From the NCBI RefSeq assembly GCF_000026545.1, contig NC_011601.1: 64,000 bases of DNA. The stretch is one strand, 5' to 3'. The translations under genes were made by a program, and so were the position numbers. This document shows positions 33,969 through 34,310 of the stretch, piece after piece. This DNA comes from Escherichia coli O127:H6 str. E2348/69 (GTDB lineage: Bacteria; Pseudomonadota; Gammaproteobacteria; Enterobacterales; Enterobacteriaceae). A model generated the notes under the pieces. That model was not told the DNA's origin. It ran no database searches and saw nothing but the letters and a program-made list of their open reading frames with translations. Each line of letters begins with the position of its first letter. Position 1 is the first letter of the stretch.

Positions 33969-34310
33969 TCAACCATCAACCTTTTTACACGGGAAAGAGC
34001 CGATGATTTTCGGTGCATCCATGCTGTTCTGCAGAAGCTGGACGTTCAGGAAACGCGTTTCGGTGCCAGGGCGACGAATGTATTCAAAGCCGTAGTTGTT
34101 ACCGTCTTTGGCAGGCATAAGCCCCATATCAATCTTAATGCCATCAGCACCAAGATTTGTAATTTTCTGAGATGTGACGCGTTCACCGTTAATCATGTCC
34201 ATTTCCCCCAACCTTGCAGTGATGGTGTAAGGTCCACAATAAGCGGTGTAACCGCTTGCAGATGCCCCAAATGACATAAAGGCAACAATTAAAATGGCTA
34301 AGGCTTTCAC
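33969..34310 (-). CDS. Small secreted protein (Sec signal peptide), function unknown
   Basis: 113 aa; MKALAILIVAFMSFGASASG signal peptide with AxA cleavage site; sits inside the tail module. Confidence 0.55.
   Translation of the reverse strand: MKALAILIVAFMSFGASASGYTAYCGPYTITARLGEMDMINGERVTSQKITNLGADGIKIDMGLMPAKDGNNYGFEYIRRPGTETRFLNVQLLQNSMDAPKIIGSFPCKKVDG

Follow-up and report, generated by a model that had tools for sequence, protein, structure and literature searches.

We analysed a 64,000-nucleotide (nt) stretch of the chromosome of Escherichia coli O127:H6 str. E2348/69 (contig NC_011601.1), called the window below, with the focus on one small gene located at positions 33969-34310 on the minus strand. 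It codes for a protein of 113 amino acids (aa), deposited in RefSeq as a 'hypothetical protein' (WP_012578957.1), and is found in the tail block of a prophage, directly after the gene of the baseplate hub. The comparison of related loci gives good support to the conclusion that this is an accessory gene fixed in the tail module of SEN34-like temperate myophages of Enterobacterales. Its product, called here the small protein, is probably an exported, non-virion accessory protein that is independent of the two-gene cassette located next to it. With regard to its function, we tentatively suggest, by analogy with known phage systems, that it may serve superinfection exclusion genetically linked to the tail type that is excluded. 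The two parts together, an exported accessory protein and exclusion, make the best overall explanation that we can offer, and our limited confidence in it is a compromise between the well-founded first part and the doubtful second one.

Judged by its PHROG match, its homologues and a ratio of nonsynonymous to synonymous substitutions (dN/dS) far below 1, the reading frame is a genuine gene rather than a chance open reading frame (ORF). The small protein belongs to PHROG 3443, a family of unknown function (E 2.5e-46; residues 2-112 aligned to profile positions 2-114 of 115), and the family comprises 393 homologous protein clusters at 90% identity. The mature part is under strong purifying selection, with dN of 0.07-0.36 in pairs down to 53% protein identity, and dS was at or near saturation in many pairs of the gene (in an example pair, dN was 0.07 vs dS of 1.9). 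The gene starts with GTG at 34310 and ends with a stop codon at 33969-33971. The TAA stop of the hub gene occupies 34313-34315, the GTG begins 2 nt later, and a ribosome-binding site, GGGGG (34316-34320, minus strand), lies within the last hub codons, 5 nt upstream of the GTG. An earlier interpretation of the window made from its letters alone (the sequence-only reading) had placed a 113-aa ORF between the hub gene and the cassette, and the same ORF is present in RefSeq. The GC content of the gene is 0.465, with 0.48 at third codon positions (GC3); these values resemble those of the downstream spike, J and I genes (GC3 0.43-0.48), and the upstream tail genes have a GC content of 0.52-0.55 and GC3 of 0.59-0.62.

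The homology searches proposed earlier yielded nothing beyond PHROG 3443. No characterised relative was found when the single protein was compared with Pfam, NCBIfam, PADLOC, PDB sequences and a PDB profile, and a Pfam search with 30 relatives at E 5 gave no match. A literature search on the identifiers of the small protein and of the related phages did not reveal functional or proteomic data. The large proteins P0161 and P0174, which appeared in the profile search, were rejected as low-complexity artefacts. On the plus strand, a 213-aa ORF (33633-34274) lies opposite the small gene and the beginning of the cassette, overlapping both; since selection and homology favour the minus-strand gene, this ORF is most likely spurious. 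It was also noticed that the GenBank record of phage SEN34 (KT630649.1, 15497-15838, which corresponds to 6001-6342 of locus L001) starts the gene at an internal methionine and gives a protein of 77 aa, and the same is true of locus L006 (ST340-VIM1phi10.1). The full ORF, located directly after the hub stop, starts with TTG (SEN34) or ATG. The internal start removes the signal peptide, and in this way the exported nature of the protein is hidden.

Export was judged heuristically, from the conservation of signal-peptide features among 137 analysable family members with 65 distinct N-termini. By direct reading and by family conservation, codons 1-19 (34254-34310, minus strand) code for a predicted Sec signal peptide, MKALAILIVAFMSFGASA, which is followed by SGY. 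It contains a lysine at position 2, a hydrophobic h-region of about 13 residues, ALAILIVAFMSF, and A17-S18-A19 at positions -3 to -1; cleavage by signal peptidase I is predicted after A-S-A. The first cysteine, in the context TAYC, has no lipobox. All 137 family members possess a hydrophobic core (median Kyte-Doolittle value of 2.8) and a small-residue -3/-1 site before the first conserved cysteine, and not one of them has a lipobox at this cysteine. Thus, the Sec signal peptide with an AxA site and without a lipobox, as described in the sequence-only reading, is a property of the whole analysable family. Relatives with as little as about 30% identity still have these features and a pair of cysteines. 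Divergence is faster in the signal-peptide region than in the mature part, which is usual for signal peptides.

The mature domain of 94 aa (33972-34253, minus strand) is predicted to form an 8-stranded up-and-down beta-barrel, and it is bracketed by two cysteines that are retained down to 18% identity. Cys25 is invariant and sits 2-6 residues after the predicted cleavage site across the family. Cys108, located about 5 residues from the C-terminus, is present in at least 90% of the A2 rows (it is missing only from a truncated sequence) and in 134 of the 137 family members. We infer a Cys25-Cys108 disulfide. In prophages of Serratia marcescens (L010 8001-8879, L011 and L012), a 292-aa variant was found that consists of a lipoprotein signal (LSGC), a 190-aa domain and the barrel domain; this fusion occupies the same place, directly after the hub gene. 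Its N-terminal lipoprotein domain gave no match in PHROGs, Pfam or PDB. The signal features, the faster divergence of the signal region, the cysteine pair and the Serratia lipoprotein fusion, taken together, make it very likely that the small protein is exported by the Sec pathway to the periplasm.

The position of the gene was examined in 8 GenBank phages, 80 IMG/VR contigs and several assemblies (L numbers denote loci). Upstream sequence was available for 91 loci, many of them near-identical prophages, and in every one the small gene begins only 2-3 nt behind the hub stop. The tight junction holds also at 30-38% protein identity and for the lipoprotein fusion. After the stop of the small gene, the sequences split into at least 40 different junctions, and between 51 and 1832 nt separate the small gene from the spike gene. 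Two loci, L017 and L034, carry no cargo at all, and in these a terminator follows about 25 nt after the small gene.

In the window, this intrinsic terminator, AAAACCCGCC ATTC GGCGGGTTTT with a T run (32653-32676, minus strand), lies about 20 nt before the ATG of the spike gene and forms the right border of the cargo slot. Its folding energy is -17.7 kcal/mol (z -4.1), and none of 200 shuffled sequences was as stable. A GC-rich hairpin with a T run is kept before the spike gene in nearly all loci of the group (L001-L093), with stem variants across genera such as CCCGCC/GGCGGG, CCCAC/GTGGG, CCCGTC/GACGGG and GCCGC/GCGGC. When 26 different versions were aligned, 91.7% of the cells were paired and compensatory changes were found in 3 of the 6 stem pairs; in the control, with the partners slid by 1-3 columns, only 30-51% of the cells paired. 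By this comparison of sequences, the terminator before the spike gene is the ancestral downstream neighbour of the small gene. The backbone of the region, as read from the aligned loci, is hub, small gene, terminator and spike, and in the window the cassette has been inserted after the small gene and ahead of the terminator, which lies 1.3 kb further downstream as a result.

The hairpin that the sequence-only reading had assigned to the gene is another one, located at 33945-33963 (minus strand) at the left end of the present cassette. Its 7-bp stem exists; however, the fold is weak, with an energy of only -8.6 kcal/mol (z -1.25) that 24 of 200 shuffled sequences also reach. The hairpin is found only in loci with this cassette, and L078 has no such stem despite a cassette of 97-100% identity. 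It is probably not functional, and the conserved terminator at 32653-32676 takes its place in our description. The presence of a terminator within the late operon is explained by the lambda-type Q antiterminator of the prophage: late transcription would continue past the terminator, and only transcription without antitermination would be stopped there. Given its tight junction with the hub gene, the small gene is presumably expressed as part of the Q-antiterminated late transcript.

The cassette of the window consists of two genes (32696-33848, minus strand; 33078-33848 and 32696-33091) coding for proteins of 256 aa (phrog_17809) and 131 aa (phrog_5176, with a weak HEPN_IX match), and its GC content is 0.39-0.42. 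A sigma-70-like promoter precedes it (33878-33907, minus strand; TTGACT, 18 nt, TAAAAT; 10 of 12 positions match), identified as a consensus match only. The same cassette occurs in L057, L058, L064 and L065 next to a small-protein allele of 73% identity, and the allele of 97-99% identity is accompanied by many other cargos or by none. As the small gene is constant and the contents of the slot vary, the functional tie to the adjacent cassette that had been put forward earlier is not supported.

The small gene does not behave like a gene of a normal tail component, in agreement with the sequence-only reading. The solved baseplate of Pam3 consists of six components (PMC9942802). None of the six is homologous to the small protein, and in the Pam3 genome the genes of hub gp19 and spike gp20 are adjacent and the small gene is missing. 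The hub and spike genes are adjacent also in Edwardsiella phage ZHS and Acinetobacter phage Ab105-1phi, which lack the small gene as well. Since the two genes are neighbours in these three phages, the small gene is an extra gene inserted between them, as expected of a moron. In Hafnia phage yong1, the hub is 78% identical and the terminator is kept, and an unrelated 136-aa ORF replaces the small gene; no homologue of the small protein was found anywhere in the yong1 genome. A family profile compared with all PDB chains, including the baseplates of Pam3, E217, Pa193 and phi92, gave no match. In E217, gp42 is encoded between hub gp41 and tip gp43, and the main text of the structure paper is silent on gp42. 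Virion proteomics is not included in the SEN34 paper, and none was found for Mulock or YP3. From these sequence comparisons, a virion role is unlikely. The placement beside the hub gene is shared by related phages, and nothing indicates that this conservation reflects a baseplate role.

The term moron, applied to this gene, holds in part. The gene is extra DNA between genes that are adjacent elsewhere, and it has a terminator of its own: where cargo is absent, and likewise in the Serratia arrangement described below, a conserved GC hairpin and its T run come directly after the gene; in the window they are displaced. The idea of a free-standing moron is not supported, as the gene abuts the hub gene and no sigma-70-like promoter was found upstream of it in the window, L017 or L097; this was a consensus scan, which weak or non-sigma-70 promoters could escape. 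In some Serratia prophages, the small gene is located between the plug and hub genes, with a GC hairpin and a T run directly after it (L097 5332-5351; L100 about 731-749). As the gene is placed on either side of the hub gene with a terminator each time, the mobile unit appears to be the gene of the exported protein together with the terminator.

Single chromosomal homologues outside tail modules were found in Erwiniaceae: in Pantoea vagans (next to fliE), Mixta calida (cls-yciY locus, 166 contigs), Erwinia psidii, E. oleae and E. typographi. All of them carry signal peptides. This chromosomal subfamily (L098 and L102-L107, which also include Erwinia sp. 9145) shares the motif VRTSQSQIRIxGxYDC, and all its members are annotated as hypothetical. 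Its neighbours include fliE, the cls-yciY locus, genes of LysR regulators and an Hcp gene; in the case of the Pantoea copy, a phage-type repressor gene and DinI are located about 2-4 kb away.

The comparison of prophages revealed a sharply bounded allelic patch of about 250 nt (34111-34360, minus strand). It takes in the whole signal peptide, together with the final ~15 codons of the hub gene on one side and the initial ~47 residues of the mature part on the other. By sliding identity, it begins 50 nt ahead of the start codon and ends 200 nt inside the gene; DNA identity is 42-72% within it and 96-100% in the flanks. Within the patch, dS is saturated (3.4) and dN is 0.29; in the 3' part of the gene, dN is 0 and dS is 0.03. 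The saturated dS points to an old allele brought in by recombination and not to a recent change. At least three allele classes exist in E. coli prophages, with protein identities of about 98%, 72% and 59%, and the N-terminal patch of the 72% class is the same as in the protein of Yersinia phage YP3 except for one signal-peptide residue. In many loci, the small protein is only 71-73% or 59% identical to that of the window and almost all other tail proteins, including tape-measure, Dit, plug, hub, spike, sheath initiator, J and wedge, are 96-100% identical. The allele type showed no correlation with nine other tail proteins, except for a weak one with hub identity (rho 0.23, p 0.04). A binding surface could lie in the invariant C-terminal half.

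The predicted model of the small protein shows a confident 8-stranded beta-barrel and, with lower pLDDT, a helix at the N-terminus. Among its structural neighbours, all small barrels at 4-14% identity, there are several secreted or periplasmic proteins and several DUFs, and none is a specific relative. Foldseek searches with the model against PDB and BFVD gave nothing significant, and PliC and PhiA ranked below many unrelated barrels, including avidins. Such a generic barrel fits a periplasmic binder or inhibitor and names no function.

The working model that we prefer, with the reservation made at the beginning, is superinfection exclusion. The small protein would wait in the periplasm and bind there either the tube tip, hub or tape-measure protein of an incoming phage, once it is exposed in the periplasm, or a conserved host envelope partner needed by those tail proteins. 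As a result, DNA entry by a superinfecting relative with the same tail type would be blocked. Two features expected of exclusion-type proteins, the export signature and the constant hub adjacency, are both present. No homology to a known exclusion protein (gp15, Llp/Cor, Spackle, SieA) was found with Pfam, PADLOC, NCBIfam or PDB, and the fold searches returned only generic barrels. More speculative still is a wider version of this model, in which contractile-tailed temperate phages might possess, in this family, a new class of periplasmic immunity protein directed against injection, whose gene is firmly placed beside the hub gene with its terminator. Such a protein might sense the incoming tail or a host partner after the spike is shed, the N-terminal half might set the specificity, and the Erwiniaceae copies might be domesticated orphan anti-phage genes.

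Several observations weigh against the exclusion model. No homologue with a known function was obtained in any profile, sequence or literature search, and a promoter for expression in the lysogen was not detected by the consensus scan; exclusion proteins of the classical kind are early products or are expressed from the prophage. Low translation is suggested by the start codons, GTG in the window and TTG in SEN34. The allele tracks neither the hub, the spike nor the tape-measure type, and thus a specific tail protein target is not indicated. The predicted barrel would suit a ligand-binding protein or an enzyme inhibitor equally well. Finally, the 91 loci with the constant hub junction are not independent, many of them being near-identical prophages.

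The alternative that survives best, which we nevertheless regard as rather unlikely, is a lysogenic-conversion or fitness factor: the barrel would bind a small ligand or an envelope component, in the manner of lipocalins or avidins, and would alter the host envelope with no part in phage entry. A function without a link to the tail would hardly account for the strict hub adjacency in two arrangements, the consensus scan detected no lysogen promoter, and the gene is not associated with pathogens but follows the phage backbone across genera.

Somewhat less probable is a periplasmic helper of the late lytic phase, which would mask a receptor or envelope site so that progeny is not wasted on debris, or would tune lysis. 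The coupling of the small gene to a late gene, with no separate promoter found, agrees with this proposal, and the lipoprotein-fused variant suggests action at the outer membrane. However, a complete lysis cassette (holin, GH24 endolysin and Rz1-like LysC) is present elsewhere in the prophage, a soluble periplasmic protein would be released and diluted at lysis, and the conserved terminator makes more sense if non-antiterminated transcription must stop there.

The case of a periplasmic inhibitor of peptidoglycan hydrolases, similar to Spackle, PliC or PhiA and directed against the tape-measure muralytic domain of incoming phages, is weaker again. The C-terminus of the tape-measure protein is indeed a muralytic domain, and its version in the window is related to endolysin 7q47 and to Gp29 of 9vvp. 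The tape-measure protein of SEN34, however, has an SLT domain at the same place, within flanking tape-measure sequence that is 92% identical to the window. The occurrence of such unrelated domains (SLT vs 7q47-like) next to small proteins that are 97% identical weakens the Spackle-like version. Moreover, the allele is uncorrelated with the tape-measure C-terminal type, no MliC/PliC match was obtained in Pfam even at E 5, and PliC and PhiA rank low in the fold search.

We consider improbable a structural or assembly protein of the baseplate, that is, a membrane-active tip component or a hub chaperone whose hydrophobic N-terminus is not cleaved. In its favour, the hub adjacency is constant with a spacing that allows translational coupling, the position is conserved in related phages, and the PHROG neighbours are structural. 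Nevertheless, the gene is missing from yong1, ZHS, Ab105-1phi and Pam3 despite their homologous hub, plug and spike, and no solved virion contains a homologue. The cysteine pair, the lipoprotein-fusion variant, the stand-alone chromosomal homologues and the swapping of alleles without co-variation of the tail proteins also speak against it. The least probable candidate by far is a functional partner of the adjacent cassette (256 aa and 131 aa, HEPN-like), for which adjacency in the window and a low GC content common to both, relative to the upstream tail genes, can be cited, and which is contradicted by at least 40 different downstream contents with none in L017 and L034, by the identical cassette next to the 73% allele in four loci, and by the promoter-like site of the cassette itself.

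The prophage that carries the small gene covers about 40 kb of the window and is integrated at argW/intS of E. coli E2348/69. Between positions 31800 and 35400, the window matches the chromosome of this strain with 100% identity. Its regulation is of lambda type, with N, a CI-like repressor, Cro, CII and the Q antiterminator, and its lysis cassette is standard. The morphogenesis block is of the contractile-tail type (a SEN34-like myo-prophage), and Salmonella phage SEN34, of the genus Brunovirus, is the closest named phage. On the minus strand, the tail genes follow in the order tape-measure, Dit-like, Pam3_gp18-type plug, hub, small gene, two-gene cassette, spike, sheath initiator, baseplate J and wedge. 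The tape-measure protein gene (36266-38275, minus strand) lies upstream of the Dit-like gene, and its muralytic domain (36398-36796, residues 494-626) is a swappable module. The hub gene (34313-35374, minus strand; 353 aa), the constant upstream neighbour of the small gene, matches phrog_196 'baseplate hub' (E 1.4e-87) and the Pam3 hub gp19 (PDB 7yfz, E 2.7e-12), with a Pfam match to E217_GP41 below the cut-off. The spike gene (31879-32631, minus strand), gpV-like and with the Apex motif, is the constant downstream neighbour of the cargo slot. A tail-fibre gene at about 29081-29650 is a truncated pseudogene according to RefSeq, and a fragment of a helix-turn-helix gene lies before intS. The E2348/69 prophage is probably defective for the production of infectious particles, and the small gene is nonetheless intact.

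The slot between the small gene and the terminator (32677-33968 in the window) is a cargo hotspot at the hub-spike junction, as observed in the slots of L001-L092. The cargo includes PD-Lambda-1 (E 1e-84, L045-L047), a YafO toxin, a T5orf172/MUG113 protein, DUF4282, and thioredoxin-domain and TPR proteins. Cassettes coding for a protein of 243-267 aa, TPR-like by eye, and a HEPN-like protein of 127-153 aa are recurrent and very diverse, and the 256 and 131 aa pair of the window belongs here; this two-gene family may be an unrecognised defence or toxin-antitoxin family. In the distantly related Burkholderia phage vB_PL1, an unrelated 123-aa ORF with a signal peptide (phrog_38062; L095 3415-3786, minus strand) is located between hub and spike on the opposite strand, and the cargo of L025 and L008 also encodes signal-peptide proteins. 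Exported proteins thus seem to recur at the hub-spike junction. The L025 cargo protein and vB_PL1 gp24 were tried as homologues of the small protein and rejected, as they share only the signal peptide with its family.

Few accessory genes of temperate phages have proven ecological effects; those coding for exported proteins in tail operons are among them, acting for instance by excluding competitors or by changing the host envelope. The family described here, uncharacterised and without a Pfam entry, adds one more exported accessory protein embedded in a tail operon. It is widespread in clinically relevant Enterobacterales: related modules were found in 319 of 5,426 complete E. coli genomes and also in prophages of Klebsiella, Salmonella, Yersinia and Serratia. 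Should the small protein prove to block entry, it would open the periplasmic stage of DNA delivery by myophages to study, with relevance also to phage therapy directed at lysogens of Klebsiella and E. coli. Independently of what the protein does, the small gene and the terminator mark a cargo hotspot in the baseplate block that carries known defence genes, which aids mining for new ones.

Among known systems, gp15 of phage HK97 offers the closest parallel to the exclusion model. This moron of the tail operon has its site of action in the envelope, and whether a phage is excluded depends on the tail region of that phage (PMC3594210). The protein gp15 is related to YebO and has chromosomal enterobacterial homologues (PMC3594210; Cumby et al. 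2012). The small protein likewise appears to be a small envelope-targeted protein encoded in the tail operon, between genes that are adjacent in relatives, and it has non-prophage homologues in Enterobacterales. In contrast, gp15 resides in the inner membrane, and its gene has a promoter of its own and is active in the prophage; the small protein is predicted to be a soluble exported beta-barrel, a promoter was not detected by the consensus scan, and the two have no sequence or fold relationship.

Llp of phage T5 and Cor of phi80, N15 and T1-like phages are outer-membrane lipoproteins that block FhuA (PMC9586334). They resemble the small protein in being small exported proteins encoded beside tail or receptor-binding genes, in the very phage against which they protect; the neighbour of Llp is the gene of the receptor-binding protein. 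The Serratia variant of the family is a lipoprotein fusion. The differences are that most family members have no lipobox, that there is no sequence similarity, and that Llp is expressed early. A second role described for T5 Llp is receptor masking, by which progeny is not lost on debris.

Spackle of phage T4 is a periplasmic inhibitor of the gp5 tail lysozyme and the product of an early gene (PMC7677548). With its length of about 100 aa, its signal peptide and its soluble form in the periplasm, it is comparable to the predicted small protein, and SEN34-like tails also bring a muralytic domain into the periplasm. The likeness ends with the coexistence of near-identical small proteins and unrelated muralytic domains, and with the predicted beta-barrel fold. 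Spackle is all-helical. As for the periplasmic beta-barrel inhibitors of lysozyme and lytic transglycosylase, MliC/PliC and Brucella PhiA, no Pfam match was obtained, and in fold they are less similar to the small protein than avidins and other unrelated barrels. The conserved MliC/PliC motifs were not seen in the small protein.

With regard to the cargo slot, hotspots for defence and cargo genes in phages, for example in P2-like phages and satellites, have reportedly been described by Rousset et al. in 2022. The hub-spike slot differs from them in the phage group and in its position inside the baseplate gene block, and to our knowledge it has not been described previously. It resembles them in that fixed landmarks of the backbone, the stop of the small gene on one side and the terminator before the spike gene on the other, flank variable cargo that includes PD-Lambda-1 and YafO.

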